A DNA stretch of 64,000 bases from a virus (IMGVR_UViG_3300029705_006902:1-64000); one strand, 5' to 3'. Numbered from the stretch's first letter, positions 3,709-28,808 are shown. A program made the numbers and translations. The notes: a model not told the origin generated them from the sequence alone.

Positions 3709-3711
3709 AGT

Positions 3712-4565: not shown

Positions 4566-4587
4566 AAGTTTTAGTAAGTATTAAATT

Positions 4588-4791
4588 TTATCCGAAAACG
4601 GGTGCATCGTAGTGAATCACACCGCAATCGCAATACTGCTGGATGTTAAAGAGTCTGTAGAAGAATCTGATAATCTTCCAGAAGATGCTCATAATGCCTG
4701 ACTTGTGGCAAAGGTGATCGCAATTTTCGGAAGGATCTTCAGGCTGTTCGGGTTCAACGGGTTTCTCGAACTCATATCCGCAGCCGTGGTC
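4588..4791. repeat. 204-bp near-identical repeat, copy 2
   Basis: Matches 1-204. Confidence 0.9.
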
Positions 4792-11562: not shown

Positions 11563-11584
11563 TTTTCGAAAGGAGAATAAACAA

Positions 11585-12243
11585 ATGAAAAAACTTTTAT
11601 CAATCATCCTCACAATCTTAATGATTGTGACGAGCGTACCCTTTGCCTTTGCGGCAGATGTCAGTCTTGTAATCAATATGACCGACAGCTACGGTGACGG
11701 CTGGAACGGCAATGCAATTCAAGTGGGCACTGTTTCCGGCGGTGAATTCACAAAAATTGCAGATGTGACATTTGACGAAGGCGCAACTGCCACCTATGAG
11801 GCAGCTATATCCGACGAAAATGTTTATGCTTTCAGATGGACCAAGGGTTCTTATGCCGAAGAATGCAGCTTCAGCATCGTTATAGGCGGTAAAACTGTTT
11901 TAGAGGCATCTGATTGCAATGCTTATGCACCGGATGGTATTATTTATACCACTTGCAATCACAGCTTCAGCGACAGCATCTGCTCAATATGCGAACTTGA
12001 ATGCGGTGTCGATTTTGCACACACTATGAACAGTGACAGTGAATGTACCGCTTGCGGTTTTATATGCAGCCATAGCTATACTAACCATTATTGCAAAACC
12101 TGCAAAACTACAGAGAACGGATATTATGCCGGTGTCTGCGGTGCAGAAAACATGAACGATGCAATCTGGTCACTTGATTCACAGGGAACTCTTACTATCA
12201 GCGGTACAGGTAAGTACGATGTAGAATATCTTAACGCTCCCTG
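11585..12243 (+). pseudogene. Surface protein 2, N-terminal fragment with signal peptide (inside the inversion)
   Basis: MKKLLSIILTILMIVTSVPFAFA is paralogous to the protein 1 signal peptide; DSYGDGWNGNA domain recurs in the C-terminal fragment; frame ends in TGA at the junction. Confidence 0.88.
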
Positions 12244-12367
12244 ACATTTTTGCGATGTCCGTTATTGTGGTGCGCTCAAAGCCTTTCTGAATAAACTGTG
12301 CCGTTGCAGCTGTGAGAATTTTTCTGTGTAATTCTCTGCTTTCTGCTTCACTTCTTACATTCGCCAA
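12240..12367 (-). pseudogene. TetR regulator 2, N-terminal fragment (TTG start, outside the inversion)
   Basis: (M)ANVRSEAESRELHRKILTAATAQFIQKGFERTTITDIAKMSG matches the paralog N-terminus; RBS GAAAGGA upstream. Confidence 0.88.
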
Positions 12368-12397
12368 ATCATCACATCCTTTCTGAAACACACTTCA

Positions 12398-12455
12398 AAG
12401 TAAACCGTGGTTCAATTTCCGAAGTAATATTATCACAATGTTAAAATATTGTCAA
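12398..12455 (-). promoter_or_regulatory. Promoter (TTGACA-17-TAATAT, 12427-12455) and degenerate operator (12398-12417) of TetR operon 2
   Basis: AAGTAAACCGTGGTTCAATT matches 16/20 positions of the 4444-4463 palindrome at the equivalent position. Confidence 0.6.
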
Positions 12456-12537
12456 TATGTTTGATGTAAAAAAATTTAATTTTTTTACGGTTTTACGACA
12501 GCATAAAAATGTTACTTTTATTTGTATGCAAAAAAAA

Positions 12538-12726
12538 GGTTCCTCACGGAAAGTTGTGGGATTTTTGATTAAGGGAAATGCAAATTACGGTTTATCGGGG
12601 TCTTTGCAAAGTGAATTTCCCTCTCAAACACTTGCCGCCCCTGAAAGGGGGATTGATGAGCAACAAAGAAAGAGAGCGATAAACCGTAATTTGTTTTCTT
12701 CATCCCACAACTTTCCGTGAAGAACC
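12538..12726. mobile_element. 189-bp non-autonomous MITE with ISL3-family-like terminal inverted repeats
   Basis: 25-bp TIRs GGTTC(C/T)TCACGGAAAGTTGTGGGAT (1 mismatch); internal perfect 17-bp IR (12581-12597/12677-12693); A-runs of 8 and 7 nt on either side, consistent with an AT-rich target duplication; no transposase. Confidence 0.7.
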
Positions 12727-12734
12727 AAAAAAAT

Positions 12735-12771
12735 AATCCTACGCTCATTGTATCAAAACAAGCGTAGGATT
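12735..12771 (-). terminator. Intrinsic terminator downstream of the tRNA 3' end
   Basis: 11-bp stem AATCCTACGCT/AGCGTAGGATT followed by a U-tract on the minus strand. Confidence 0.75.
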
Positions 12772-12772
12772 T

Positions 12773-12794
12773 TGGTGCCGGTGACCGGGCTCGA
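12773..12794 (-). tRNA. 3' fragment of a tRNA (Leu-like; T-loop to CCA), candidate integration-site remnant; not a full tRNA
   Basis: Minus strand TCGAGCCCGGTCACCGGCACCA: T-arm 3' side, acceptor strand pairing with a 5' GCCGGTG, discriminator A, CCA; no D arm or anticodon arm upstream. Confidence 0.65.
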
Positions 12795-12877
12795 CTCTCG
12801 CGTTGCGACGCTTAGGTCACTGCGCGGCTCTGAACATTCACTGAATGTTCATTCACTCCCGCGCCGCTTCGAGCCCG
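12786..12877. repeat. 92-bp nested hairpin element fused to the tRNA 3' end
   Basis: 9-bp outer IR CGGGCTCGA/TCGAGCCCG, inner CGCGG/CCGCG and a perfect 10-bp TGAACATTCA/TGAATGTTCA stem. Confidence 0.7.
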
Positions 12878-12889
12878 TTTCATGGAAAT

Positions 12890-12929
12890 AAAAAAACACA
12901 CGCAACCGCAAGGGCGCGCGTGTTTTTTT
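12890..12929. terminator. Probable bidirectional terminator at the island edge
   Basis: A7-CACACGC...GCGCGTG-T7 with a GCAA apical loop. Confidence 0.6.
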
Positions 12930-12965
12930 GTAGTTCCACGCATATTTTAATACAAAGTTTGAAAT

Positions 12966-13040: not shown

Positions 13041-13373
13041 TCAATCGCACTCATTTGCGATGAAATCATACAGTGCCCCAGGCTCTTTCAAACACCATTT
13101 CTTATCCCCATTAGGAATAGACACCTCATAGTTATCAGTTGCATCGTAAAGCCACCAGGAAATGTACTCGTACTTGTCGTTCATCGCTTCAGCCAATACG
13201 AGCAGCAGAGCCTCCTGGTATTTGTTTTTCACACCGAATACAAAGCACCCGTCTCCGACTTTCTGTAGCGCCTTACTGAAATCAATATCGGTTGATTCTT
13301 GTTCCCGTATCAATTCCAAAGCTTTACAAAAAGTGTCTTTTGAAATCATAGGTTTTTCTTTCATCTGTTTCAC
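13041..13373 (-). CDS. Hypothetical protein (110 aa; phage/ICE type)
   Basis: ORF overlaps the upstream stop (ATGA coupling); ends the minus-strand gene run. Confidence 0.65.
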   Translation of the reverse strand: MKQMKEKPMISKDTFCKALELIREQESTDIDFSKALQKVGDGCFVFGVKNKYQEALLLVLAEAMNDKYEYISWWLYDATDNYEVSIPNGDKKWCLKEPGALYDFIANECD

Positions 13374-13846
13374 CCAAGCAATGACTCATCTGCATCTGCC
13401 ACAGAGTTTAGAAACAGATTTTTTTCAATGCAATCAAACAGAAAGTTTACTACTTCGAAATTACACTCTTCCTCCGGCTTCGCAAATTCCCAATGGATTA
13501 TCTCCATTATTTCAGCTTTTGTGAAGTACAAACCCGTGGCATAAAGATTCTTGATTTCTTCCAAAGTATATTCAGGAGGTGTAAAATACATATCAAGATA
13601 TTTTGCTAAATAGATTTCAGCAACTAAATCTTTCTGCCATTCAGGTAATCTCTTTTTCATTTTCTTTATGGCTTTTAACTCATCAGCAGATAACTGTTCT
13701 GGGGCCATTTGTTGCAACAATAAAGCATTAAGAATTGTTTCTCCCGTTTCAATCATTTTCTGCCGTTCTTCAATTGAATCTATGCCACACAAAGAGGGGC
13801 TGTATGAAATTAACTCATCTAATTTGCATCTATTCATTGCTTTCAT
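13370..13846 (-). CDS. Hypothetical protein (158 aa)
   Basis: RBS GGAAGG upstream; coupled to the next gene. Confidence 0.65.
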   Translation of the reverse strand: MKAMNRCKLDELISYSPSLCGIDSIEERQKMIETGETILNALLLQQMAPEQLSADELKAIKKMKKRLPEWQKDLVAEIYLAKYLDMYFTPPEYTLEEIKNLYATGLYFTKAEIMEIIHWEFAKPEEECNFEVVNFLFDCIEKNLFLNSVADADESLLG

Positions 13847-13895
13847 CCTTCCATCTCGTTATGGTTAATTGTGGCTTTTTCGCCATAATTAGGTT

Positions 13896-14087
13896 TTAGT
13901 AAGTGAAGGGTATTCTTCCCGTTCTAATTATCTCCTTGAACAACCCATTAATTAGTTCTTGAAATGAAATGTTTTGTTCAACAAGAATTTGATTAAGCTG
14001 CAAGTATTCTTCTTCGGGCATTGACACAATTAGCTGAAAAGAACCATCCTTGTTCCTCTCAAATCTTATGTTCTCATCCATTTTCAT
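13896..14087 (-). CDS. Small protein, RelB/DinJ antitoxin-like (63 aa)
   Basis: Size, helical middle and C-terminal IIRTGRIPF resemble RelB/DinJ ends; RBS GAAGGG. Confidence 0.4.
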   Translation of the reverse strand: MKMDENIRFERNKDGSFQLIVSMPEEEYLQLNQILVEQNISFQELINGLFKEIIRTGRIPFTY

Positions 14088-14148
14088 TCACCCTTCGTAA
14101 TATAAGTGTCGGAAACAAGAAAAAGTAACAAAACTTTTCATAAAATAT

Positions 14149-14403
14149 TTATGCTTCATCGTAGAAACACGAAAACCGGAAAAATTCCGCTATAATTCGT
14201 ATAGTGTTTGACAACTCATAACACACATTTTTTAATTCCTCGTTGTTCAATACATCGAGGTATTTTTTCTGTTCTTCTCGGCTCAAGTCCGAAAAGCACC
14301 TCTCAACGGTTTTTCCATTTCTTTCAACTTCGCTGTAAAGCCTATCCAAACCCCTGGGTTCAGGAATTTGGCTTTCGTCTTTGATATCCATATTTCTCTG
14401 CAA
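14149..14403 (-). CDS. Hypothetical protein (84 aa), paralog of 15953-16255
   Basis: Shared R-x-LD...V-x-RNG...E-x-CF-x-DLS..EQ...LD....EEL...C..L pattern; RBS GGAGG. Confidence 0.7.
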   Translation of the reverse strand: MQRNMDIKDESQIPEPRGLDRLYSEVERNGKTVERCFSDLSREEQKKYLDVLNNEELKNVCYELSNTIRIIAEFFRFSCFYDEA

Positions 14404-14479
14404 CCTCCATTTTTAGTTCAGTATCTGTAAAAAACTATTTGCTTTGTTTGAGGATTTCCTCAATGGTTTTAGAACAGAT

Positions 14480-15181
14480 TTAAACACCAGAGTAAAATTC
14501 CTCCATATCATCAAGGCGCAAGCAAGAAAGCCGTCCTATGTCGCCATAAGCACAGCCACAATCTATTCCTATACGGTCATCCCATTTGCAGATTTTCATT
14601 ATTTCATCATCTTGATACTGCCAAGTAGGGGTATGACCGAAAATCATAGTTTTGCCTTCCGGCACAGATGCCGTTTCCGAATCGCGAGTCCAAACGGCAT
14701 ATTGTTTGACGCTGTCGTATTTACTTAATCTGTCGATGTAATTATCAGTAATACCTGCGTGTACAAGAATATAGTTTTTATCATTTACTGTGACCTCGAT
14801 ATTTAACGGCAACGAATCAAGATATTCAAAGATTTCTTTTCGGACTTCTTTCCTCGTATGTTTTATGCTGTTATGGGTAACTGCTCCGCCATTGCTATAC
14901 CAATTGTTCAACCGGGCAAATGATTTGAAATTTTTTGAAAATTTATCCACATCATCAATTGGATAGTACAAAACATTTAACATCATAAGCTCGTGATTGC
15001 CGAGCAGCATTTTTATATTTGGAGTTTTCATTATGTATCGCAGTATTCTTATACCGCCATCGCCTCGGTCAACCACATCGCCTAAAATATATAAAGTGTC
15101 CTTTTCGCTGAATTTTATTTGCTTTAACATATCACGGAAACGGGCTTCATTGCCGTGAATATCTGACATTACATAAACCAC
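14480..15181 (-). CDS. Metallophosphoesterase, PPP/lambda-phosphatase-like (233 aa)
   Basis: Motifs SDIHGN, GDVVDRG, LGNHE, HAG, FGHT. Confidence 0.9.
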   Translation of the reverse strand: MVYVMSDIHGNEARFRDMLKQIKFSEKDTLYILGDVVDRGDGGIRILRYIMKTPNIKMLLGNHELMMLNVLYYPIDDVDKFSKNFKSFARLNNWYSNGGAVTHNSIKHTRKEVRKEIFEYLDSLPLNIEVTVNDKNYILVHAGITDNYIDRLSKYDSVKQYAVWTRDSETASVPEGKTMIFGHTPTWQYQDDEIMKICKWDDRIGIDCGCAYGDIGRLSCLRLDDMEEFYSGV

Positions 15182-15218
15182 TTTATTCTCCTTTCAATTA
15201 TTAGGGGTTCCATACATT

Positions 15219-15956
15219 TCATTCTTCTCGTTGTCGGTAATACCATTCCTTTTTTCTTTCGAGTTCTTTTTTTATTTCGGTTACATCGTAGTCACTATAT
15301 TTTTCAACAGCCTCAATAAAATCTACAATTATTCCACCTGACAAACAATGCTCATAGCCTTCAAACCAGGAAAAATTGTTGTCTGATTTCACTGGAATAA
15401 TCGGCTCATCGTAAGAAACAAAAAGGTAATCGTATTTAAGATAATGGTTGTCGATGAGGTAATTAGGTTTATACCATAAATGCTTTACCCCTTTTGCAGA
15501 AATATAGCCGTGTCTTTTATACAAATATCCAAACACATACCAAGGTGGTAAATCAGAAGCATATATCTTCGTTGGGTATTTGCCTTGCGACAACAAATAA
15601 CGGTTCGGTTGGGCTGTAGGGTCAAAACTATGCCTACCCAACCTTGCCCCCATATATAAAGTTGAATTGATTTTTTTCTTTGTTTTCTTTTTTCCGTAAT
15701 CGAGCTCCTCGAAAACGATTGTGCCGTCATTCGTTTTTATGGTGTGTATACCCGTTGTTTCATCAAGACTATGCTCGTTTACTACAACATTTACGAACAA
15801 GCTATATTTATAGAGTATGTGTCGAAATTTGAGTATTTCACCAATTACTATATCATCAACATTCGCATACAAACCGGTAAATCCTTCATATGGGCTACCT
15901 TCACAATCTAAATCTTTACCCTCATCTGACATTGCAGAGATTATCACAATATTCAT
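15219..15956 (-). CDS. Hypothetical protein (245 aa)
   Basis: Long ORF coupled to upstream gene; no recognisable motif. Confidence 0.7.
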   Translation of the reverse strand: MNIVIISAMSDEGKDLDCEGSPYEGFTGLYANVDDIVIGEILKFRHILYKYSLFVNVVVNEHSLDETTGIHTIKTNDGTIVFEELDYGKKKTKKKINSTLYMGARLGRHSFDPTAQPNRYLLSQGKYPTKIYASDLPPWYVFGYLYKRHGYISAKGVKHLWYKPNYLIDNHYLKYDYLFVSYDEPIIPVKSDNNFSWFEGYEHCLSGGIIVDFIEAVEKYSDYDVTEIKKELERKKEWYYRQREE

Positions 15957-16255
15957 TTCTTAACCTGCTTTCTTTTACACGGGATTTTAATCACAAAGCC
16001 GAAACGCTTCATACCTTCAGTAGCTTCAGGATGATTACTTAAATCCTCAACTTCTGCAACATTACGAAAATCAGTAGCAAGAGTTTTGCACAGTTTAATG
16101 AGTTCCTCACGAGAGGCACCATCTAAAATTGCATTTTGCTCTTTTTCAGAAAGGTCTGTAAAGCAAAGTTCAAGTTCTGTGCCATTGCGAACTGTGTTAT
16201 AAATCGTGTTGTCCAAATAGCGTACTAATGGATAATTTTCTGTCTTAATATTCAT
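15953..16255 (-). CDS. Hypothetical protein (100 aa, start MNIKTENY), paralog of 14149-14403
   Basis: RBS GAAGG before ATG at 16255; the longer ORF-track start overlaps the upstream gene. Confidence 0.7.
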   Translation of the reverse strand: MNIKTENYPLVRYLDNTIYNTVRNGTELELCFTDLSEKEQNAILDGASREELIKLCKTLATDFRNVAEVEDLSNHPEATEGMKRFGFVIKIPCKRKQVKK

Positions 16256-16268
16256 GTTTTTTACCTTC

Positions 16269-16901
16269 TCAACCATCACCGAAAATATCGTTACAAAATT
16301 CTGTAAAGTTAATATCGATTCCGGGTTCAAAATTTTCATCGTCATTTTGCAATTCGTCAATTGATCTGAATACTTTTTCTTGAACTGCAAGTTGGGTACG
16401 TGTGTGTGGTGGCTCATTAATGATAATGTTTGGGAACCCCCAATAATCATCGTCACGATTCAGCCATTCTCCACGTGTGTTTTTATATTGCAAACCAACA
16501 ACATCGGTGCTTAAGCAACGGAAGTAGTTATTCTCTGCTTGAAACCAGTAATGTTTTACTTTAGCTGATTTGAAACGCATATAATAAGGAAAGCCATAAA
16601 TATTTTTATGCTCCCAAGTATAATCTCTCATTTCGTGTTCAAATGTAGCTATGAGATTTACCGGTTGCAAAAGCCTATGCTGATTGTATGCAACATAATG
16701 TGTTACTTCCGTATCGCCAGAACAAAATTTATCAAAGGCATCAATTAAACAGCCATGGTCTTTTGATAGTTTTTCATCAGCCTTCAATGAATTAATTAAT
16801 GATGCGATTTCACCTAATGTTCCGAAGTATTGTTTATCACCACTTGCGATACCAGGAAGTGCGTAGTCATCCAAGGTTAATGCGTAATACTGTTCTTTCA
16901 T
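16269..16901 (-). CDS. Hypothetical protein (210 aa)
   Basis: ATGA-coupled to the upstream phosphoesterase. Confidence 0.7.
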   Translation of the reverse strand: MKEQYYALTLDDYALPGIASGDKQYFGTLGEIASLINSLKADEKLSKDHGCLIDAFDKFCSGDTEVTHYVAYNQHRLLQPVNLIATFEHEMRDYTWEHKNIYGFPYYMRFKSAKVKHYWFQAENNYFRCLSTDVVGLQYKNTRGEWLNRDDDYWGFPNIIINEPPHTRTQLAVQEKVFRSIDELQNDDENFEPGIDINFTEFCNDIFGDG

Positions 16902-17596
16902 TCCATCCCTCCCACAAAGCCTTTAAATAAAAAGACCATATTATCAATTTTTTTGTCTATATGCCAATGACCGCAAAACCACTTTTTATATTCAAGTTTG
17001 TCCTCAATAAAGTCGAGCCAAGTTTCAGTGCTTTTATCAATCAATTCTTGATTCAATCCGGGAAGAAAGGCTTCCTTGGGTTCGTACTTCAAAGGACATG
17101 TATGGCTTAAGACCTGGTCAATTTTCCAATCAATACTTTCAAGTTTTGTTTCTACGCGGGCCTTTGTTTCTTCTGAAGGCTGTTCGTCTGGAAACCAAGA
17201 TAAACCATGTTTTAGCCGATAAGGTTTATCTACCGAATAGGCTCCTCCGATAACAAGAGTTGAACAACCGTCAAGGTCGTATATTTCACCATCTTTAGCA
17301 AATTTTATGTAGGGGTATTGCTCTTCTGTATATACTACGCCACCATTCCATATACTTTCTTTATAAGTTGATATGGTTTCTGGGCGCATTTCGTGATTGC
17401 CGTGAATACAGAAAATATTTACCCCCATATAATTAAGCCGATATTTGTTCCTTCTCTCTCCGAGCGTGTTTCCATAATAATTAAGACCAACATCACCAAG
17501 TATTACAATGGTATCTTTTTCGGTTAAATTAAATCTGCGTATGAAATTTTGTATTGGGAGTACATTCCCGTGAATATCACCTGTATAATAAATCAT
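16898..17596 (-). CDS. Calcineurin-like metallophosphoesterase (232 aa)
   Basis: Motifs GDIHG, LGDVG, HGNHE, SHTCP, GHWH. Confidence 0.9.
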   Translation of the reverse strand: MIYYTGDIHGNVLPIQNFIRRFNLTEKDTIVILGDVGLNYYGNTLGERRNKYRLNYMGVNIFCIHGNHEMRPETISTYKESIWNGGVVYTEEQYPYIKFAKDGEIYDLDGCSTLVIGGAYSVDKPYRLKHGLSWFPDEQPSEETKARVETKLESIDWKIDQVLSHTCPLKYEPKEAFLPGLNQELIDKSTETWLDFIEDKLEYKKWFCGHWHIDKKIDNMVFLFKGFVGGME

Positions 17597-17612
17597 TATT
17601 TTTCCTCTCTTT

Positions 17613-17831
17613 CTACTTTGTGTTTTCAGTATCAGGAATTATTTCCATAATGTCCCCAAGCTTACAATTGAGTACCAGGCATATTTTTTCTAATACATCG
17701 GTTCGCATGTTTCCGCCTTTACCCATTTTGGTTAATGAAAAATTACTAATGCCAGCGGCTTTTGCCAGATCTCCTTTTTTCATTTCTTTATCAATCAGTA
17801 GTTTCCATAGCTTTTTATAACTTACTTTCAT
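17613..17831 (-). CDS. Cro/C1-type HTH protein (72 aa from MKVSYKKLW)
   Basis: SYKKLWKLLIDKEMKKGDLAKAAGIS...LEKICLVLNC is the HTH_26 pattern; RBS AAGGAG. Confidence 0.85.
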   Translation of the reverse strand: MKVSYKKLWKLLIDKEMKKGDLAKAAGISNFSLTKMGKGGNMRTDVLEKICLVLNCKLGDIMEIIPDTENTK

Positions 17832-17981
17832 TTTGAACACTCCTTAAAGATAAATCTTTAATTACAACGATTGTACCTTTGCCGAAAAATATGGTCAATA
17901 ATTTTGGCGTTTTCATATCAGATATGATTTCAAAGAGACTCCAAGTATTATCTCGGAGCCTCTTTTTTGTGCATAAGCACA

Positions 17982-18359
17982 TTAGTAATAAAACGAAGTC
18001 GGCTCTTGATTTGTCTTCATCCATTCATTACCGCGCAAGCTCTCTTTTACAGCGAGTGCAACATCATAAATAATACGTTTTTCACAGGTGTTGCAATCCT
18101 TGACAAGTTCGGTCAGCTCATTACAGTATTGCTTTTTGTCACTAACCTGGTTGCCATAAAGAAGTTGGTCAACAGTAATGCCGAGAACATTTGAAATGCG
18201 AACCAAACTTTCGAGACTTGCTTTCTTGAGACCCGTTTCAATATGACTTATGTACGAAACGGAAAGGTCTGTAAATTCAGCCAAGTCCGCTTGAGACAAT
18301 TGCTTCAAAATACGAACCTCCTTTACCCGTACACCTATCATTTTGTGGTTCAAAACCAT
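17982..18359 (-). CDS. Xre-family HTH regulator (125 aa from MVLNHK)
   Basis: IGVRVKEVR...LSQADLAE...SYISHIETG; RBS AGGAGG. Confidence 0.88.
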   Translation of the reverse strand: MVLNHKMIGVRVKEVRILKQLSQADLAEFTDLSVSYISHIETGLKKASLESLVRISNVLGITVDQLLYGNQVSDKKQYCNELTELVKDCNTCEKRIIYDVALAVKESLRGNEWMKTNQEPTSFYY

Positions 18360-18495: not shown

Positions 18496-18840
18496 ATGGT
18501 AACTGATAGGAAAACATTAGGCAAACGAATACATGACGCCCGTAAGTCCAAAAAAATGAGTCAATTTGAACTTGCTGAAAAGGTTGACATCTCTATTTCA
18601 CATTTAAGTAGTATTGAAAACGGGCGCACAAGTTTTGGGGTTGAAATATTTATGAAAATAGTTGAAGCCCTTGATATTTCTTCTGATGAATTGCTTCTCA
18701 TCAAGACCCCCGCTGTAAAAGATATGTTGAACACTGAATTTGAAGAAATAATTTCTGATTGCAGTCCCGCAGAAGTAATTAGCATTTTGAAAATGGCAAA
18801 GGAAATGCGAGAAGCAATCAGGACGGCAAAATCAGAATAA
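18496..18840 (+). CDS. Xre-family HTH regulator (114 aa from MVTDRK)
   Basis: LGKRIHDARKSKKMSQFELAEKVDIS...SIENG; RBS AGGTGG. Confidence 0.88.
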   Translation: MVTDRKTLGKRIHDARKSKKMSQFELAEKVDISISHLSSIENGRTSFGVEIFMKIVEALDISSDELLLIKTPAVKDMLNTEFEEIISDCSPAEVISILKMAKEMREAIRTAKSE

Positions 18841-18959: not shown

Positions 18960-20858
18960 ATGTTAAACAGTTCAAAACGGCTGCTCAAAGCCGAGCAGAA
19001 AGAAAAAATCAGGCAGAGATATAGGGGCATGGACACATCCAATATGGAAGTAATTCCGGCTGAAGCTGCTCCCGATTTTTATGATGAAAAATTTAAACGA
19101 GTGGCAGTATATGTTCGTGTTTCGACAGATAATATCCAACAAACCACCTCATTTGAAATTCAAAAGAATTACTATGAAGACATGGTTGACAAGCACGATA
19201 ACTGGGCCTTGGTAGACATCTATGCCGATGAAGGTATTTCAGGTACTTCTTTGATGCATCGAGAGGCTTTTAATCAGATGATTGATGACTGCAAAGCTGG
19301 AAAAATCGATTTGATAATTACAAAGAGCGTGTCCCGTTTCGCGAGAAATATCGTTGATTGCATTAGAATTGTAAGAGAGCTGTCCGAGATGAGAGACCCG
19401 GTTGGCGTTTTCTTTGAGACGGAGCACATATTTACTTTAAAAGAAGACACCGAAATGACGCTCTCGTTTCAAGCGGCTATGGCACAGGAGGAGTCTCATG
19501 CAAAGAGCCGCATAATGAACTCCTCATTAGAGATGCGATTTAGCCATGGTATTTTGTTGACCCCCGAACTTTATGGTTACCGCCATAACGAAGAAGGCAA
19601 ATTGATAATTTGTGAGGAAGAGGCACCCGTTGTACGATTAATTTTCTTTATGTATCTTTATGGTTATACGAGTCAGCAGATAGCTGATACACTAACTAAA
19701 CTTGAAATATTAACCCCAAAAGGAAAAAGTGAATGGGCGTCAGGAACTGTTCTTGGAATTCTCCGCAATGAAAGACATTGTGGCGATGTTTTAACAAGAA
19801 AAACATATACACCTAATTATCTAAATCATAAATCTGTCAAAAACAGAGGAAATAAGACGCAGCATCTATGGAGAGAGCAACACGAGGGCATCGTTTCTCG
19901 TGACGATTTTATTGCCGTGCAGCACTTAATTAATAATGCTAAATACGGAAACAAAGGAATTCTGCCCGAATTAAAAGTAATCTCAAGCGGTGCATTAAAA
20001 GGATTTGTATCCATTAATCCCCGATGGGGAGGTTTCACACGGGACGATTATTACGAGGCATCTGCGAGCGTTGTTCCGGATACCCCTACGCAAGATGAAC
20101 CAATACAGGTAACTGCTAAATCAGGTGAGTTTGATTTGCGTGGTTTTGAAATTGCTCGGTCGCAGTTTTTCGATACCCAAGATAAAATGTGCATATCATT
20201 TTTCTGCGACCATGTCACATTTTCTACATCGTGTATTAAAAAGTTCGACAAAAAAATGTATGTAGAAATCCTTGTCAATCCGGTTCAACATTTACTTGCA
20301 GTTCGACCTTGCGATAAAACTGTGAGGAATGCTCTCAAGTGGTCACGCCTTACCCCCGATGGTGATTATGTTCCGAAAGTAATCAGCGGAGCAGCTTTTA
20401 TAAAAACCATGTATGATTTGTTTGAATGGATCCCGGAATACCGATATCGAATAAGAGGTATAAAGAGAACAAAAGGAGATGAATCTATACTTATATTCGA
20501 TTTAAAAGAAACAGAACTTTTCATCCCCAAAGCCGTGCTTGATGCCGAAACCCAAGATGCCGAACATAGCGATGTTACTCCGGTAATGCCTGATGTTCGT
20601 GAAAAAGTCGTAGCATATCCAAATGATTGGGCGGACAGCTTTGGTAGTGATTATTATTTGCACGCCCAAACAAATGAAACCCCTATGTGTATGGATGGCG
20701 AGGAAAAATGGGAAAAAGCGGATGCAAAAAGCATACCTTTCATGCCAGAATTACAAGTTACGGCACCGAACGATATTGCAAACAATATTCAACAAATAAT
20801 TAGTGATATTAAAAACACAGCTTCCAAAGACGGAGCAGATTTAGGAGGAAATGAATAA
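18960..20858 (+). CDS. Atypical large serine recombinase (632 aa): resolvase + recombinase domains, no zinc ribbon, novel C-terminal domain
   Basis: RVAVYVRVST catalytic motif, DEGISG, TKSVSRFARN, ILRNERHCG; no CxxC zinc ribbon after the recombinase domain. Confidence 0.9.
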   Translation: MLNSSKRLLKAEQKEKIRQRYRGMDTSNMEVIPAEAAPDFYDEKFKRVAVYVRVSTDNIQQTTSFEIQKNYYEDMVDKHDNWALVDIYADEGISGTSLMHREAFNQMIDDCKAGKIDLIITKSVSRFARNIVDCIRIVRELSEMRDPVGVFFETEHIFTLKEDTEMTLSFQAAMAQEESHAKSRIMNSSLEMRFSHGILLTPELYGYRHNEEGKLIICEEEAPVVRLIFFMYLYGYTSQQIADTLTKLEILTPKGKSEWASGTVLGILRNERHCGDVLTRKTYTPNYLNHKSVKNRGNKTQHLWREQHEGIVSRDDFIAVQHLINNAKYGNKGILPELKVISSGALKGFVSINPRWGGFTRDDYYEASASVVPDTPTQDEPIQVTAKSGEFDLRGFEIARSQFFDTQDKMCISFFCDHVTFSTSCIKKFDKKMYVEILVNPVQHLLAVRPCDKTVRNALKWSRLTPDGDYVPKVISGAAFIKTMYDLFEWIPEYRYRIRGIKRTKGDESILIFDLKETELFIPKAVLDAETQDAEHSDVTPVMPDVREKVVAYPNDWADSFGSDYYLHAQTNETPMCMDGEEKWEKADAKSIPFMPELQVTAPNDIANNIQQIISDIKNTASKDGADLGGNE

Positions 20859-21565
20859 TGGATACATATATTAATGACCCTGTAGCTTTAGCCTTAAATG
20901 AAGAAAAAGCATCTGATACAAGAATTGAGATTATTGAAGACCCGGATTTTTCATATGAGGGATTCCAAGTTGTTCGTGGCGAGTTTTTTGCTCATATGTA
21001 TGAGCCATCTATAACATTTAATAACTGCAAGGTTTCTTTAAATACTGCGTGTATAAAGAAACTACCTGAGGTTGAGTATGTGCAGATACTTGTAAATCCC
21101 GAAACAATGAAACTTGCAGTACGCCCCTGTAATGAGGATGATAAAGACTCATTTTTGTGGTGCAACAATAAGAATGGAAAACGCAAACCCAAGCAGATTA
21201 CTTGCCGTTTGTTTTTTGCAAAGCTTGTAAGTTTGATGGGTTGGAATCCTAACTACAGATATAAGATGCTCGGCAAAATTATAAAAAGCGGAGATGATTT
21301 TCTTATCCTCTTCGACTTAAATGCAACCGAAATGTATCAGCGAACAGTAAAGGATGATGGTAAAATCAGAACCTCACGCACACCAATTTTTCCTGCTGAA
21401 TGGCAAGATCAGTTCGGTCTTCCGGTTGAAGAGCATCAAAAACTGTTGCAAGTTAATATATTTGATGGTTATACCGTTTTTGGAGTTCAGGAGAAAAAAG
21501 AAAACAACGCACCCACTGCCGAACTTACAATAGAAAGTATTCCTGAAGGAGGGGAAAATGTATGA
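20858..21565 (+). CDS. Hypothetical protein (235 aa) homologous to the recombinase C-terminal domain
   Basis: GFQVVRGEFF...CIKKL..VEYVQILVNP...LAVRPC...W..NYRYK...ILFDL aligns with the recombinase region encoded at ~20130-20520. Confidence 0.85.
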   Translation: MDTYINDPVALALNEEKASDTRIEIIEDPDFSYEGFQVVRGEFFAHMYEPSITFNNCKVSLNTACIKKLPEVEYVQILVNPETMKLAVRPCNEDDKDSFLWCNNKNGKRKPKQITCRLFFAKLVSLMGWNPNYRYKMLGKIIKSGDDFLILFDLNATEMYQRTVKDDGKIRTSRTPIFPAEWQDQFGLPVEEHQKLLQVNIFDGYTVFGVQEKKENNAPTAELTIESIPEGGENV

Positions 21566-21951
21566 CAGCAGGATTACCGGCTTCATTGCTTGTGGATTTT
21601 TCAAAATTCAGAGTTTGCATACATACCAGGGTTCTGTCTGCTTTAGGCAATCCCGATTACATATTGCTTATGGTAAACCCAAACGAAAAGAGTATCGCAA
21701 TTATGCGAGGCTCTGAAAAGTTTGCAGACACACATAGAGTTTCGTATAACAAATTGAAAGATGGTCGATGTTGCGAAATTTATAGTCGTTCTTTTGTAAA
21801 AAAATTATTAGAGGTTTGTCCCGAATGGAGAGTAAAAAGCACCTACAGATTAAGTGGCGATGTGATTCAAGGAAAATCAATAGCTGTATTTTCAATGACA
21901 GGTGCGGAGGAATTACGAGTTAGCAAGGAGGCTGATATTGATGGTCAATGA
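21562..21951 (+). CDS. Hypothetical protein (129 aa), third, more divergent copy of the same domain
   Basis: RVCIHTRVLSALGNPDYILLMVNP...IAI...W....YRLSG...AVF. Confidence 0.75.
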   Translation: MTAGLPASLLVDFSKFRVCIHTRVLSALGNPDYILLMVNPNEKSIAIMRGSEKFADTHRVSYNKLKDGRCCEIYSRSFVKKLLEVCPEWRVKSTYRLSGDVIQGKSIAVFSMTGAEELRVSKEADIDGQ

Positions 21952-22891
21952 GAGCCTCTATCTTAAAACCAACCCGGAATGGGAGCATTACATTTACCCG
22001 CTAACACCAAAAGAGGTAAAAGACCTACATAAAGAATTGGATGAAAAAGGTTATCAAGGAACTATTAAAGTTTGGAATCTTTATGTCTTAACCGACCATG
22101 AGGCCTTTGAATATTGCAAGAAAAATGATATATCATACCGCATCGAACACATAAAAGCCAAAAATATGGAAGAGGCACTTTTGTGGATTTGCAAATATGA
22201 ACTTGCAAATCGCAAATGGCTCCCTGAAGAAATGAAAAAATATTTGATTGGAAAAAGGTATATTTTTGAAAGGGTTCTTGGTGCTCACTCTCATATGGAA
22301 GCGAGAAAACTTGCAAATAGGAATCCTAAATATAAACAGCAAATCGGGGGTACAAAGTATGATGAAACTGCAACCAGTACCAGACAAAGAATAGGTGCTG
22401 ACTACCACATTTCATATGTTACGGTACGAAAATATGGAATTTACGCAGAAATGGTAGATACCATTATGGAAGTTTCGCCTGATTTGGCAAAAGGCATCAT
22501 CAGCGGAAATATTCGCATTTCACACGAAAATATGGAAGCTATCGTTTCTCTGCCCCCCAATGAAATAAGGACAGCAGCGGAAAAAATATTAACCGAGCAT
22601 AAGAATAATAAAAACTATTCAGCACCCCGTGAAATATTATTGCAAACCCCCGGATTTGAGAGTAAAACAATGCCTACAGTTGGCTTGATAAAAAATATGC
22701 CAGAATATGACCCGGATGCAGAGGTTTCAAGCCTTACTCTGACAATTCCGATGTGGATAAGTTCTGTTAATAGAACTAAGGCAGCAACGGATATGACAAA
22801 GGTAAGCGCCCTGGCAAAAACACGATTAAAAAAAGCATTAAGAGAACTTAATAGTGCTATTCAATCAATGTATTCAGAAATAAAGGAGTAA
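21902..22891 (+). CDS. ParB-like N-terminal domain plus HTH protein (up to 329 aa; true start probably near 21938-21947)
   Basis: IYPLTPKE..L...L...G...I.VW...VLTDHEAFEYC...WIC...L..R...E.KKYLIGKRY, a degenerate ParB/Srx motif, followed by an HTH-like segment. Confidence 0.6.
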   Translation: MRRNYELARRLILMVNESLYLKTNPEWEHYIYPLTPKEVKDLHKELDEKGYQGTIKVWNLYVLTDHEAFEYCKKNDISYRIEHIKAKNMEEALLWICKYELANRKWLPEEMKKYLIGKRYIFERVLGAHSHMEARKLANRNPKYKQQIGGTKYDETATSTRQRIGADYHISYVTVRKYGIYAEMVDTIMEVSPDLAKGIISGNIRISHENMEAIVSLPPNEIRTAAEKILTEHKNNKNYSAPREILLQTPGFESKTMPTVGLIKNMPEYDPDAEVSSLTLTIPMWISSVNRTKAATDMTKVSALAKTRLKKALRELNSAIQSMYSEIKE

Positions 22892-22896
22892 AAACA

Positions 22897-23838
22897 ATGG
22901 AAGATAATATCCAAGATTTATTTGAAAATACCGAACCGAGTGAAGATATTCTTGACTTGAGTTTGTTTATTCCCAATGTAAAATTTGAACTTATTCCAAT
23001 TAAAAATCTTGTATCAAACCAGGATTATCAAAGAAATCTTTCTACCTCACATATCAGAAGAACCGTTGAGAGTTTTGATATTTATCAAGTAAATCCGGTA
23101 AAAGTTAGTAGGCGTGATGGTATAAATTATGTTTTCAATGGACAGCACACCATCGAAATAATCGCAGCGGTATCAAACTCCCGTGAGACCCCTGTATGGT
23201 GTATGGTTTACGATGATATGGATTACACAATGGAAGCCGATGTTTTTGCAAATCAGCAAAAATGCGTAAAGCCTCTCGTACCATATGAAATCTTTATGGC
23301 AAACCTTGAAGCGGGCAACGATATGCAGCTTATAATAAAAGACCTTGTTGAGTCCTATCAGTTGGTTATTGGGGCTACCAGGGGCATAAATACTATTTGT
23401 GCTGTTTCTTCATTAGAATACATTTATGAAAAATTCGGGTTTCATGTTCTTGACCGTACCCTTCGTCTTACCGTCAGCACTTGGGAAGGTGAACCGTACT
23501 CCTTGTCTTCAAATATGCTTAAAGGCATAGCTCGCCTTATTGTAGCTTTCGGTGACAAGTTGAGAGATGACCTTTTCAAGGATAAAGTTGGTATATATTC
23601 AGCGAAGGACATTACTCGAACAGCAAAAGAAAGAGCATCCGGCTCTATGGGATATGCCGAGGCTATGCTTTTAGCTTATAATAAAAAGATGCGTTATCCA
23701 TTGCGTTGGGCAAACCTATACTCCAACAAAAAGGCACATCTTCAAGAAACCTTTGAGTTTTCTTCTGCAAGTGATGATTATCAAGAAGCAGATGAAGTAT
23801 CACTTGATGACGCAGTTGAGGAGACTTTTGAAGATTGA
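22897..23838 (+). CDS. ParB-like/DGQHR-related protein (DUF6551-like, 313 aa)
   Basis: IPIKNL...QDYQRNLS...VKVSRR...VFNGQHT ParB/Srx-type core; RBS AAGGAG. Confidence 0.7.
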   Translation: MEDNIQDLFENTEPSEDILDLSLFIPNVKFELIPIKNLVSNQDYQRNLSTSHIRRTVESFDIYQVNPVKVSRRDGINYVFNGQHTIEIIAAVSNSRETPVWCMVYDDMDYTMEADVFANQQKCVKPLVPYEIFMANLEAGNDMQLIIKDLVESYQLVIGATRGINTICAVSSLEYIYEKFGFHVLDRTLRLTVSTWEGEPYSLSSNMLKGIARLIVAFGDKLRDDLFKDKVGIYSAKDITRTAKERASGSMGYAEAMLLAYNKKMRYPLRWANLYSNKKAHLQETFEFSSASDDYQEADEVSLDDAVEETFED

Positions 23839-24014
23839 AAATAAAGGTTATATTGCCAGTATCAGAGGAGGGAAAAGAAAAACTTTCACGAGCTATATGT
23901 AAAGCTCATCTTGATATGGTAGTAAAAAACATTAACAAACTAAATATATCTTACGAGCTAAAGCTGAAACTGTTTGATGCCGTTTGTGAAGAAATACAAA
24001 GCCGAAACAAGTAA
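23835..24014 (+). CDS. Small helical protein (59 aa, TTG start; not in the ORF track)
   Basis: TTGA overlap with the upstream stop; RBS GAGGAG at 23818; MKIKVILPVSEEGKEKLSRAICKAHLDMVV... Confidence 0.55.
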   Translation: MKIKVILPVSEEGKEKLSRAICKAHLDMVVKNINKLNISYELKLKLFDAVCEEIQSRNK

Positions 24015-24562: not shown

Positions 24563-25879
24563 ATGAAAAAGATAAGTAACACCCTTTCTTCTGCCTTGCA
24601 GTGGGCATTTGCAGTATTGTGTTTTTTAGGTGTTTTAGTCTATGGTTTTACCTTTGGTAGCTTTTTGATTTTGCTTGCGGGACTTATAGCAATGCCGATT
24701 AAGCCTGTTAGAAAATTCTTGAGAGAAAAACTGAAGGTAAAAACACTCGTTGCTGTTCTTTTATCAATAGTTTTATTCGTTGGTGGCTGTATGGTTATGC
24801 CACAGCTTGAGACGGATGTTCCAATAGATGAAACAACAGTTACTACAACCGAAGAAGAAGAGCCAGCCACCACTGTTGCTCAAACAACCGAAGAGCTAAC
24901 TTCTGAAGTTGCAACCACGGAAGAACCAACTACCGAACCAACTACCAAACCAACTACCGAACCAACTACCGAACCAACTACCGAAACAGCAACCTCCTCA
25001 ATCGTAGCTAATAAAGAGAACTTAAGTTCAAATAAGGTTTCTGTTGCGGACATCCCCAATTTTTCTGGCAAAGCATATATAGCTGTAAATGGCAACAAAC
25101 CATATTTCACCGAGTCTGAAATAACCTCAAAAGCCTTTGAGACTTATACATCTCTTGACAGTAATGGAAGATGCGGTGTTGCGATGGCTTGCTGTGGTGC
25201 AGAAATAATGCCGGGGCCCGGTGAAGAAAGAGGTAGCATAAGCAGCATAAAACCGTCCGGTTGGGTTCAAGCTCAATACGATTGTGTAAGTGGTAAATAC
25301 TTATATAACCGCTGTCATCTTATTGGTTGGCAGCTCTCCGCAGAAAATGCAAACAGAAGAAATCTTATAACCGGAACAAAATATCTGAATATTGAGGGTA
25401 TGCTGCCTTTTGAAAATATGGTAGCCGACTACATAAACGAAACCGGAAACCACGTTATGTATCGAATAACCCCAATTTTCAAGGGTAACAATCTTGTAGC
25501 AAGTGGTGTGCAAATGGAAGCATACTCTGTCGAAGACGGCGGAGATGGTATTTGCTTTAATGTTTATTGTTATAATGTTCAGCCCGGAGTTGTGATAAAC
25601 TATGCTACGGGCAGTAGCTATCTTGAAGGTGGTTCTTCTGAAACCTCAACAAAAAAAGAAACAACCACTAAGGAAACAACGACAAAGGCCCCCACTACTA
25701 CAAATAGCGGTAGCCATAATGTTTCAGCTTCATACATTCTTAATACGAATACGAAAAAAGTTCATTACCCCGGTTGTAGGTCCGTAAAACAAATGGCGGA
25801 TAAAAATAAGCAAGAATATAATGGTAGCCTCGATGACATCTTGTCTCGTGGATATACAACTTGTGGGAACTGTTTCTAA
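24563..25879 (+). CDS. Membrane-anchored DNA/RNA non-specific endonuclease (DNA-entry nuclease type) with C-terminal Ada-like metal-binding domain (438 aa)
   Basis: N-terminal TM helices; EPTT linker (5 x 12 bp at 24923-24982); LDSNGRCG...YNRCHLIG...NLITGTKYLN; YILNTNTKKVHYPGC...C..C. Confidence 0.85.
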   Translation: MKKISNTLSSALQWAFAVLCFLGVLVYGFTFGSFLILLAGLIAMPIKPVRKFLREKLKVKTLVAVLLSIVLFVGGCMVMPQLETDVPIDETTVTTTEEEEPATTVAQTTEELTSEVATTEEPTTEPTTKPTTEPTTEPTTETATSSIVANKENLSSNKVSVADIPNFSGKAYIAVNGNKPYFTESEITSKAFETYTSLDSNGRCGVAMACCGAEIMPGPGEERGSISSIKPSGWVQAQYDCVSGKYLYNRCHLIGWQLSAENANRRNLITGTKYLNIEGMLPFENMVADYINETGNHVMYRITPIFKGNNLVASGVQMEAYSVEDGGDGICFNVYCYNVQPGVVINYATGSSYLEGGSSETSTKKETTTKETTTKAPTTTNSGSHNVSASYILNTNTKKVHYPGCRSVKQMADKNKQEYNGSLDDILSRGYTTCGNCF

Positions 25880-25923: not shown

Positions 25924-27504
25924 TTATATAGTAACTTCCGTTCCTCCTTTGAAGAAAAACTGCATCTTCTCATCGTGATATATTACAACCCTGTCAATCA
26001 TATGTAACCACAGCCTTTCATCAAAATCTGTGAGGGGCTCATCGTTTTCTTTTAACTGGAACATAAATGCGCCTATAGCTTCAGCTTGTTCTTCTTTACG
26101 CTGCCTTTCCGCTTCAAGGGATTTAAGGCTTTTTACGGCTTTGGAATGCCTTGTTTCAAGTTTAGAATACTTGTGGGAAAACTCCTCCTGGTCTTGCGCC
26201 TTCATAGTATTTTCTATTATTGCTTTTTTTATAAGTTCTTCTATTATTTCTATGTCCGAATACAACTCCTCGATTTTTTCATCAATTTCAGTTGTATCGG
26301 TTAGTACTTCTTGCATAATTCTGCAGTTTTCAAGCAGCTCATCACGCTGTGAAAGGAGTTTATTAAAAGCTGTAATAAAGGCAGTACGTATTGCTTCTTC
26401 ATCCAGGTGCGATGTGCTGCAATGCTCACCATTTTTGAATTTATTATTACATTGCCATATTGTTCTTCGGTATTTACTGTTAGAGTGCCATACCTTTGAA
26501 CCATAGTAACCACCACAATCACCGCAAACTATGCGAGTTGAAAAAATGCTGTTACCACTGTAACTTTTTCCCATTTCTTTTCTTCTCTTTAATTCCAGTT
26601 GAACTGCTTCGAAGATTTCAGGGGAAACAATAGCTTCGTGGCTGTGTTCAATATAGTACTGCGGAACTTCGCCTTCATTCTTTTTCATTTTTTTCGTAAG
26701 GAAATCCAAGGTATATTCCTTTTGCAATATTGCCGAACCTTTGTATTTTTCATTCTGCAAAATGCTTGAAATTGTGGAAGGACGCCATTTGGTTTTTCCC
26801 GCCGGTGTAGGTATCCCTTCTTGGGTTAAAATATTTGCTATCATACAAGGAGTTTTTCCATTCAAGAATTCCTTGTATATTCTTCTCACAATTACTGCCT
26901 GGCTTTCGTTAACTATTGGAAAATCACCATTACCTTTTTCAAACCCAAGGAAGTGGCTATACGGAAGTGTAACCTTACCATCGGCGAATCGCTTTCTTTG
27001 GCCCCAAGTAATATTCTCGGAAATTGACCTGCTTTCTTCCTGTGCAATTGAGGACATAATTGTTATAAGAAGTTCACCGCTTGTGTCGAGGGTATGGATG
27101 TTTTCTTTTTCAAAAAACACCTCAACACCGATTTCCTTAAGCGTTCTAACGGTTGTAAGAGTATCAACGGTATTTCTTGCGAATCTACTAATTGATTTGG
27201 TTACAATGAGGTCGATTTTGCCTGCTTCAGCATCATCTATCATTTCTTGAAATCCGTATCTCTTTTTAATGTTCGTTCCTGAAATACCCTCATCGGTGTA
27301 TACTTTTACGAAATCCCAGTCTTCATGGGAATTAATATAGTTAGTGTAATAATCTATTTGGGCAACATAACTCGTTTTTTGTTCCTCGCTGTCAGTTGAA
27401 ACACGAGCGTAAGCTGCAACCTTTCTTCGTTTGTTTTCAGCTAATAATCTTCTTGTTTTTGGGTCTTTTATGGCTGGTATTATCTGAACTATTCTTTCTT
27501 TCAT
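25924..27504 (-). CDS. Large serine recombinase (526 aa)
   Basis: KVAAYARVST, DEGISG, recombinase domain, CGDCG zinc ribbon, coiled coil. Confidence 0.95.
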   Translation of the reverse strand: MKERIVQIIPAIKDPKTRRLLAENKRRKVAAYARVSTDSEEQKTSYVAQIDYYTNYINSHEDWDFVKVYTDEGISGTNIKKRYGFQEMIDDAEAGKIDLIVTKSISRFARNTVDTLTTVRTLKEIGVEVFFEKENIHTLDTSGELLITIMSSIAQEESRSISENITWGQRKRFADGKVTLPYSHFLGFEKGNGDFPIVNESQAVIVRRIYKEFLNGKTPCMIANILTQEGIPTPAGKTKWRPSTISSILQNEKYKGSAILQKEYTLDFLTKKMKKNEGEVPQYYIEHSHEAIVSPEIFEAVQLELKRRKEMGKSYSGNSIFSTRIVCGDCGGYYGSKVWHSNSKYRRTIWQCNNKFKNGEHCSTSHLDEEAIRTAFITAFNKLLSQRDELLENCRIMQEVLTDTTEIDEKIEELYSDIEIIEELIKKAIIENTMKAQDQEEFSHKYSKLETRHSKAVKSLKSLEAERQRKEEQAEAIGAFMFQLKENDEPLTDFDERLWLHMIDRVVIYHDEKMQFFFKGGTEVTI

Positions 27505-28808
27505 CTGTGTGCTCCTTTTCTCATCAATTCAGCTTGTCTTGCTCTTTCTTTCATTTCAGGTGTCCAACTGTCTTTTCGTGAAATAGGGACCCAGGTTTTC
27601 GTGACCGCATCTCCGTTTTTTAAGAAAAAAACTACTTTATAGTTATTTTCAATTTTAATTTGCTTAATCTGTGCCTTGATGTATTCTTCGTCGAAAAAAT
27701 CTATACCCAGGATATCCAAGGTTAAGGTTTTCAGCGTCTCTTCCGGGATAGCCTTTGAAGCACAGATGCTTTTTCCTTTGGTGTTATAAGTGTTGCAAAT
27801 ATAAACTACTCTTTTGCTCGTCACTTTTCTTCTATAGGTGTCACCGCAGTTGCCACAAACAAGCAATCCCGAAAAAGTATAAAGGTTCTTTTTTCTTCCC
27901 TTTGGTGAATGCTTGTCAGCTCTCCGTATTAATTCTGCTTGAACCAGGTCAAATTCTTCCTGGCTGACAATAGCCGGATGACTGTTTTCAACATAATATT
28001 GCTGCTTTTCACCATTGTTATATACTTTTTTCTTTGTGATGTGGTTTTCTATGTATGTTGTCTGCAACATCAAATTTCCGGTATAAGAAAGGTTTTGAAG
28101 AATGCACCTTACGCTTGATTTACCCCAGGGTTTCTCATGTCTTGTTTTTGCTCCTTGTAAATTCAGCGTTTGGGCTATAGCTTCAAGCCCCATACCATCA
28201 AGGAAAGAAGTGAAAATAAACCTTACTGTTTCAGCTTCTTTTGGTTCAATTTCAAATTCACCATTTTTACATCTGTAGCCGAGCATTGTGCAGTTCCAGG
28301 GCAGTCCTTTTTCAAAATTCTGCTTCACCCTCCATTTTTGGTTTTGGCTCACAGAAAGACTCTCTTCCTGGGCAAACGATGCAAGGATGGTGAGGAGCAA
28401 TTCTCCAGCACCACTCATTGTATGAATGTTCTGTTCTTCAAAAAACACATCAACACCGAGTTCTTTTAGCTCTCGAACCGTCTGCAATAAGGTCAGCGTA
28501 TTGCGAGCAAATCGTGATATGGACTTGGTTACTATCATATCAATTTTTCCTTTTCGGCAGTCATCAATCATCCTCTGAAACCCTTCACGATTAACCTTTG
28601 TACCGCTGATTGCTTCATCGGTATAAATTCCGGCAAAAGACCATTCGGGGTTGGACTGTATGAAACTGTTATAATAACTGATTTGTGCTGCCAAAGAATG
28701 AAGCATTGCATCTTTACCAGAAGACACCCTGGTATACGCAGCAACTTTCTTTAGCCTTGCAATGCTCAATGTATCAAACGCTACCCGTTCAATTACTCTT
28801 TCCATCAA
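27501..28808 (-). CDS. Large serine recombinase (435 aa), coupled to the previous one
   Basis: KVAAYTRVSS, TKSISRFARN, CGNCG zinc ribbon; ATGA overlap with 25924-27504. Confidence 0.95.
   Translation of the reverse strand: MMERVIERVAFDTLSIARLKKVAAYTRVSSGKDAMLHSLAAQISYYNSFIQSNPEWSFAGIYTDEAISGTKVNREGFQRMIDDCRKGKIDMIVTKSISRFARNTLTLLQTVRELKELGVDVFFEEQNIHTMSGAGELLLTILASFAQEESLSVSQNQKWRVKQNFEKGLPWNCTMLGYRCKNGEFEIEPKEAETVRFIFTSFLDGMGLEAIAQTLNLQGAKTRHEKPWGKSSVRCILQNLSYTGNLMLQTTYIENHITKKKVYNNGEKQQYYVENSHPAIVSQEEFDLVQAELIRRADKHSPKGRKKNLYTFSGLLVCGNCGDTYRRKVTSKRVVYICNTYNTKGKSICASKAIPEETLKTLTLDILGIDFFDEEYIKAQIKQIKIENNYKVVFFLKNGDAVTKTWVPISRKDSWTPEMKERARQAELMRKGAHR

Follow-up and report, generated by a model that had tools for sequence, protein, structure and literature searches.

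A 64,000-nucleotide stretch of viral DNA (IMGVR_UViG_3300029705_006902:1-64000; hereafter the window) carries a compact cassette that encodes a serine recombinase without a zinc (Zn) ribbon, here called SRX, two free-standing proteins (X2 and X3) made of a domain, X, that SRX also contains, and two ParB-like proteins (ORF4 and ORF5). The carrier of the cassette, a 'Ca. Heliusvirales' prophage of ~77 kb, is inserted at the tRNA-Leu 3′ end, and its layout resembles that of phi1207.3, a 52.5-kb Streptococcus pyogenes prophage that has three serine recombinases and integrates at a GA dinucleotide in comEC (PMC4260502). We consider it probable, on balance, that the cassette is the full-length 'third serine recombinase' cassette of phi1207.3-type/Heliusvirales phages, in which a neighbouring pair of large serine recombinases (LSRs) would integrate the phage and SRX would carry out a second reaction. 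The cassette is also present in some other Firmicute islands and has its own helix-turn-helix (HTH) regulators.

The SRX cassette and its repeated domain

SRX (18960-20858, + strand) is a protein of 632 aa. Its catalytic domain (19101-19520, +) corresponds to a match to Pfam Resolvase PF00239 at aa 48-187 (E 2e-24), and its Recombinase domain (19614-19934, +) to a match to PF07508 at aa 219-325 (E 4e-22). Zn_ribbon_recom PF13408 gave no match in SRX at E up to 0.1, so that Pfam bears out the original prediction, made from the sequence alone, that SRX keeps the catalytic and recombinase domains and has no CxxC zinc ribbon. The SRX homologues at 11 loci likewise contain PF00239 and PF07508 only, whereas the LSRs beside them have PF13408. 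A beta-rich X domain of ~130 aa (about 20127-20519, +) stands where the Zn-ribbon region of SRX would be, and beyond it lies a tail motif, 'P..W...FG' (20616-20645, +), which is found in SRX and X2 but not in X3. Across 70 SRX homologues, the motifs RVA.Y.RVST, IYADEGISGTSL.HR and K.V.RF.RN show a conservation of 95% or more; since these catalytic motifs are nearly invariant, SRX looks like an active enzyme, and its intact catalytic core is under strong purifying selection. The closest PDB entries by sequence, 3g13, SPbeta YokA and TP901-1, match its catalytic and recombinase parts. Small serine resolvases and invertases, for which we took about 180-200 aa with a C-terminal HTH_7 as the yardstick, have a different build: SRX has 632 aa, no HTH_7 match and a Recombinase domain.

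The X domain recurs in the next two genes. X2 (20858-21565, +), assigned by BLASTP and an AlphaFold2 (AF2) model, is a free X-domain protein with the tail motif, and X3 (21562-21951, +), assigned by hhalign, is a short, diverged one. In BLASTP, aa 390-562 of SRX aligned with aa 30-187 of X2 at 32% identity (E 1e-27). X2 and X3 aligned at E 1e-7, and their family profiles gave an hhalign probability of 98.3% (E 2.5e-14); the direct comparison of SRX with X3 was weak (E 0.06). The BLASTP and hhalign results show that the homology among the three proteins, as had been proposed, is real. The X2 family has 2,528 matches in a 90%-clustered protein collection; the best 120 are spread over many Firmicutes, are mostly 60-80% identical and all lack Pfam domains. 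A profile of the X domain retrieved 3,106 representative clusters at 50% identity, comprising X2-like proteins, SRX-like proteins of about 610-633 aa and fragments.

The X domain belongs to no known family. Pfam found no recurrent family on 86 X-family members, the PDB sequence search with X returned nothing, and a search of the ESM Atlas with the X2 model returned its own family only. The AF2 model of X2 has a predicted local distance difference test score (pLDDT) of 86, with the core above 95, and its elements run strand-strand-helix-strand-strand, twice, followed by the tail, an order consistent with a MraZ/AbrB or B3 topology; when the two halves of X were compared by hhalign, no internal repeat was detected. 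Exhaustive structural alignment of X2 ranked MraZ first (1n0e; Z 3.5, root-mean-square deviation 4.3, 95 aligned), far below significance, and the other matches were also weak (B3 1wid, Z 2.7; ARF2 6sdg, Z 2.3; plant B3 range, Z 2-2.7). The top rank of MraZ agrees with the earlier guess of an AbrB/MraZ-like barrel, but all scores are 3.5 or less, and Foldseek against the PDB found no solved relative of the X2 fold. Apart from the cassette, the X2 fold recurs in BFVD in uncharacterised proteins of 113-130 aa from unrelated phages, with matches in Lactococcus KSY1 (gp105), Bacillus Mgbh1, Klebsiella FBKp24 and a crAssphage, and X may therefore be a broader phage domain, as judged from the models.

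The two genes that follow encode ParB-like proteins, as had been predicted, ORF4 by its fold and ORF5 by its family. ORF4 (21941-22891, +) combines a ParB fold with a helical region of HTH type, as judged from AF2, Foldseek and the family consensus; its start is more likely ATG 21941 than GTG 21902. It had no Pfam match. Its AF2 model (pLDDT 91.5) retrieved Spo0J, ParB(-CTP), Noc and KorB at a Foldseek probability of 1.0 (1vz0, 7bnr, 7ng0, 8qa9 and 5k5a), with low TM-scores of 0.2-0.4 over the multi-domain match. The nucleoside triphosphate box is degenerate in the window copy (TDHEAF), compared with the GxxR-type family consensus DGHxRY. ORF5 (22897-23838, +), with an invariant NGQHT motif, belongs to DUF6551 (PF20188; E 1e-25, 90.9 bits against a gathering cut-off of 26.8), and phage proteins that join DUF6551 to a ParB-CTPase fold have been reported to bind CTP or ATP (bioRxiv 10.1101/2025.10.10.680097). 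The ORF4 and ORF5 profiles have no detectable kinship (hhalign probability 0.1), and PDB sequence searches with the two proteins found nothing. ORF6 (23835-24014, +), a 59-aa open reading frame, had been counted as the sixth gene of the module; this did not hold, because tblastn found no match to it in any related locus, and the conserved module is thus one of five genes.

All six reading frames lie at the positions first reported, overlapping or nearly abutting, with gaps of -1, -4, -11, +5 and -4 nt, and the predicted tight coupling is confirmed. The cassette reads SRX-X2-X3-ORF4-ORF5, all on the + strand in the window, and this order is kept in 68 of 80 loci from different GTDB species; among the remaining 12, 11 are seemingly cut by a contig end and one (L086) has no detectable ORF4. 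This neighbourhood survey establishes that the five genes are conserved together. The cassette proteins matched no defence model in PADLOC. As the original prediction had anticipated, the literature searched contained no characterisation of the cassette, and the words 'integrase' and 'recombinase' both failed to appear in the Heliusvirales literature searched. The fifteen deposited 'Ca. Heliusvirales' genomes (PV0364xx) have the layout of the window, with all five module genes annotated as hypothetical.

A reduced form of the cassette is found in phi1207.3, whose published description (PMC4260502) calls Orf2 simply a 'resolvase' and Orf3 hypothetical and reports no functional test of them. Orf2, which has 370 aa and no Zn ribbon, shares 40% identity with aa 13-356 of SRX (E 7e-80), has identical domain coordinates and ends where the X domain of SRX begins; Orf3, encoded by the next gene, is a free X-domain protein that matches the X3 family (hhalign probability 96%). 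By these comparisons, Orf2 and Orf3 are a split form of SRX. phi1207.3 differs from the window in that core and X are separate genes, in having a single X protein and in having no ParB-fold genes, and the same split form (core and one X, no ParB genes) is present in other Heliusvirales genomes, such as PV036428. Fusion of the SRX core with X in one lineage and their separation in another argues, as in the Rosetta-stone argument, that they work together.

The prophage, its ends and the integrating enzyme

The prophage that the window covers in part is of the siphovirus type. Its terminase, capsid, tape measure and endolysin genes lie on the minus strand, and further right are replication genes matched in PHROG to PolA, a Gp2.5-like single-stranded DNA-binding protein (SSB), an exonuclease, a primase-helicase and SNF2. 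It contains the gene set of the phi1207.3 type as given in Table 1 of PMC4260502, that is, PolA, Gp2.5-like/DUF2815 SSB, primase-helicase, SNF2 and a ParB-methylase. Two canonical Zn-ribbon LSRs come after the lysis genes as an overlapping pair: LSR526 (25924-27504, - strand), which has a PHROG integrase match and homologues with PF13408 and is probably an integrase subunit, and LSR435 (27501-28808, - strand; PHROG). With this pair and a Zn-less third recombinase near the attachment (att) site, the window phage shows the arrangement that defines the phi1207.3 type.

The left end of the integrated phage, marked by contig starts, is the attP arm GTAGTTCCACGCATATTTTAATACAA (12931-12956, no strand assigned). 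Independent samples from sheep and goat (runs X10 and X7) yielded public contigs that start at window positions 12923 and 12934, and the depth of run X10 is about zero on 11.0-12.3 kb compared with 23x on the SRX block. The arm is directly preceded by a host terminator (12889-12930), formerly that of tRNA-Leu. The inverted partner of the left arm was found on a host contig, where it abuts the 3′ end of tRNA-Leu(TAA) (G006:C1:146762). Joined, the arms give the reconstructed attP TTGTATCAAAATAAGAGTGGAGTTA-TG-TAGTTCCACGCATATTTTAATACAA, an imperfect palindrome around the common TG, and an outer motif, TTGTATCAAA, is common to the attP arms of the window, of phi1207.3 and of HCJ31 (streptococcal). 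In phi1207.3, the two ends make up an almost perfect inverted repeat centred on GA, which is a classic serine-integrase attP, and the Orf2/Orf3 cassette lies directly beside one arm. Two alternative attP sites, one in the ORF5-LSR526 gap and one beyond the regulators and served by SRX, were considered and rejected: the regions are dissimilar, and the true ends form one palindromic attP. The 'open' and 'closed' layouts differ solely in the side of attP on which the SRX block lies.

The boundaries of the IMG/VR record differ from these ends. Window 1-12930 is host DNA, encoding a TetR regulator and giant leucine-rich repeat surface proteins, and the element runs about 15.6 kb beyond record base 74708, with cargo there that includes HTH regulators, a Y-family polymerase, ImmA, two C5 methylases and a McrBC/LlaJI-type system. 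At 12775-12796, ~135 bp left of the left junction, 22 nt of the tRNA-Leu 3′ end are present as a second copy, TGGTGCCGGTGACCGGGCTCGA, with a hairpin after it; the intact tRNA-Leu(TAA) is at the right junction, 77 kb away (G006:C1:146762-146848 = L097 17763-17849). This duplicate has the look of an att scar left at the tRNA by another, earlier element.

The original prediction implied that SRX integrates the element, with SRX, X2, X3 and the ParB-like pair forming an autonomous multi-subunit integrase in which X replaces the Zn ribbon for att recognition. The intact catalytic core of SRX is in keeping with such a role, as are the position of the module, always at an element end, and its presence in islands without a related terminase, and for 36 of 56 loci the 3-8 kb downstream contain no LSR. 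However, in the genomes G001 and G002, the LSR pair is at the other end of the prophage, 45-60 kb off and beyond the surveyed flanks, and in G003-G005 the contig with SRX also has other LSR-like genes, 20-40 kb away from it. The comparison of Streptococcus suis phages of the rum and comEC types also argues against integration by SRX. Their SRX-cores are 99% identical, whereas their terminal Zn-ribbon LSRs are only 47% identical and differ in length; since the target site differs while the SRX-core is the same, the choice of site tracks the Zn-ribbon pair. In Anaerocolumna MB42-C2 (G001), the LSR 3′ end directly adjoins the prophage boundary in each of three related prophages (TerL 86-87% identical), and the SRX module is present in just one of them, at the other end beside comEC. 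The window prophage itself is bounded at both ends by the arms of a canonical palindromic LSR-type attP, and phi1207.3, with the reduced module only, is reported to integrate site-specifically. We therefore regard an autonomous SRX integrase as unlikely. Taken together, the tracking of the S. suis site, the ends of the G001 prophages and the canonical attP of the window suggest that the neighbouring Zn-ribbon LSR pair probably inserts the phage, on the palindromic attP, and that SRX would be an att-proximal accessory 'third recombinase' and not the determinant of the integration site.

Function of the cassette

The cassette always adjoins the att site, but neither the side on which it lies nor its orientation towards the LSR pair is fixed: the cassette and the pair are convergent in the window and in PV0364xx and co-directional in phi1207.3 (L106, L107) and in L094-L096. 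As a separate observation, some lineages have the SRX block inverted with respect to the LSR pair and others have it across attP, through evolutionary rearrangement or active inversion. The cassette also behaves as a unit in sequence comparisons. Between L037 and L030, the module is 95.7% identical and the flanks about 70%. In S. suis, a 2.5-kb cassette is 96% identical, with almost no DNA similarity in the LSR region, and homology breaks abruptly 38 bp past the X gene, beyond which the cargo is mef/msr in one case and a tagatose operon in the other. Elsewhere, the cargo beyond the cassette is a secreted nuclease (the window) or SRAP with a Y-family polymerase, or Fic (other loci), and in islands without a related terminase the module stands beside insertion sequences and toxin-antitoxin (TA) and defence-type genes. 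The streptococcal break point (...GGGAGTACAACTAT; L109 3771-3792, L111 4815-4836, L106 2461-2482) lies, in comEC-type phages, inside a small palindrome, GTACAA-CTA-TTGTAT, and is a candidate crossover site. No conserved motif was found downstream of ORF5 across loci, and the DNA of the window is too diverged from that of the other loci for the block borders to be fixed. A joint between 19251 and 28559 (opposite strands, one contig, from the probable source sample) was rejected as an inversion, its short side being 35 letters; block joints with such short sides (<=35 letters) link homologous recombinase catalytic regions and are most likely cross-organism chimeras.

In the scheme that we propose, SRX would catalyse a further site-specific reaction, on att-proximal DNA of the element itself; this would be resolution, inversion or exchange of an accessory block and not host integration. 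Its site would be chosen through its Recombinase domain together with X, X2 and X3 would be paralogous subunits acting in trans, and ORF4 and ORF5, with their ParB folds, would serve as DNA-bound accessory factors. We hold this scheme of a second reaction on the accessory region, with its division of labour among X, the trans subunits and the ParB helpers, with low confidence.

Several points weigh against the favoured interpretation. No recombination site for SRX was identified, and the public contigs contained no excision, inversion or circle junction of the block. The conservation of the cassette and the abrupt breaks at its edge could be explained by homologous recombination and selection, with no activity of SRX. 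DNA binding by X is conjectural, since no solved structure is significantly similar to the X fold. In the islands without a related terminase (G003, G005), the module could have a primary integrase role. Lastly, the match of the right attP arm is marginal when taken alone (5/24 mismatches; 1/20 shuffles equal), and it becomes convincing through its position at tRNA-Leu and the outer motif shared with the streptococcal arms.

Other roles for the cassette can be weighed on the same evidence. SRX, its X paralogues and the ParB partners could form a multi-subunit machine at the cassette edge that captures, inverts and exchanges cargo blocks in a resolvase/integron-like manner, which would explain the abrupt change of cargo, the high conservation of the cassette and its variable side and orientation; we judge this improbable. 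The module could instead assemble at the att site into a complex that controls the directionality or the excision reaction of the LSR pair next to it. It is always att-proximal, usually in elements that also have canonical LSRs, it has its own HTH switch, and no obvious recombination directionality factor (RDF) was identified; yet an RDF needs no catalytic serine while the active site of SRX is nearly invariant, and the two G001 prophages without the module have an LSR pair and so manage direction alone, which makes this role decidedly unlikely. We likewise see only a slim chance that the module is cargo of benefit to the lysogen and unrelated to mobility, acting in defence or exclusion or in plasmid-like stability (resolution/partition). 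Such a role would suit its accessory-region setting among restriction-modification, McrBC, TA, Fic and phosphoesterase genes, and ParB-fold and DGQHR-like proteins are known from DNA-modification and defence systems. However, the PADLOC search gave no support to it, the window proteins scanned include no ParA-like protein, and the elements are integrated, with only one plasmid record giving a weak match.

The second-reaction interpretation, if true, would bear on how phages take up accessory genes. Among temperate phages of the human gut, Ca. Heliusvirales, in which the cassette resides, is reported to be one of the lineages with the widest distribution, and the reduced form of the cassette is present in streptococcal prophages with mef(A)/msr(D) macrolide resistance. 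If the cassette moves or reshuffles cargo, it would provide a mechanism by which phages acquire and swap accessory genes, including resistance genes. A Zn-ribbon-less recombinase that delegates site choice to separable subunits would, if confirmed, also be of interest to recombinase engineers. The cassette brings together an active-looking serine recombinase, a family-less domain in three copies and two ParB-fold proteins, with no function assigned so far in the literature searched.

Surrounding genes and comparison with known systems

An HTH_3 regulator gene (18496-18840, +, start approximate; Pfam HTH_3, E 1.9e-13) is the first gene of the SRX operon, and one likewise leads the operon in L094, L037 and PV036436, where it is annotated as 'transcriptional repressor'. 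A second HTH_3 regulator, recognised by its HTH sequence, is divergent from the operon (17982-18359, -, start approximate) and has a counterpart in the equivalent position in L001-L007 and L092. Further left, a leftward operon (13041-17840, -; Pfam Metallophos), also divergent from the SRX operon, contains a small HTH gene, two metallophosphoesterase genes and genes of unknown function. The metallophosphoesterase cluster adjoins the module in L094-L096 and has homologues in L013, L014, L047, L048 and L091, which come from unrelated samples; in some lineages, the cluster and the module seem to move together. The gene at 24563-25879, between the module and the LSR pair, encodes a 438-aa cargo protein with N-terminal membrane helices, Thr/Glu/Pro-rich linkers and an endonuclease domain (PF13930, non-specific DNA/RNA).

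Canonical large serine integrases (phiC31, Bxb1, TP901-1, A118 and SPbeta SprA) share with SRX an N-terminal catalytic domain with a serine nucleophile, followed by PF07508. SRX differs from them in having the X domain instead of a Zn ribbon and in an operon that adds two free X paralogues and two ParB-fold proteins, and the comparative evidence indicates that, unlike them, it does not set the attB site. CcrA/CcrB of SCCmec and the triple sets of streptococcal integrative and conjugative elements resemble the SRX element in that several serine recombinases lie near the element end; all of these, however, are full-length Zn-ribbon enzymes that are not known to have free-standing domain paralogues or ParB-fold partners. 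Among ParB-type systems, the ORF4 model resembles the ParB N-terminal and HTH domains of ParB/Spo0J, Noc and KorB, but the nucleotide box of the window copy is degenerate, the genes for ORF4 and ORF5 are embedded in a recombinase operon, and a ParA partner was not seen among the window proteins scanned.

The closest known systems are phi1207.3/Tn1207.1, the phi-m46.1-type phages and their S. suis relatives, which have the same backbone and three-recombinase layout as the window. Orf57 of phi1207.3 is 52% identical to LSR526, and Orf56 is 42% identical to LSR435. In phi1207.3 the cassette reads away from the att site, across attP from the LSR pair, and in phages of this type the resistance or sugar-use cargo comes directly after the cassette.

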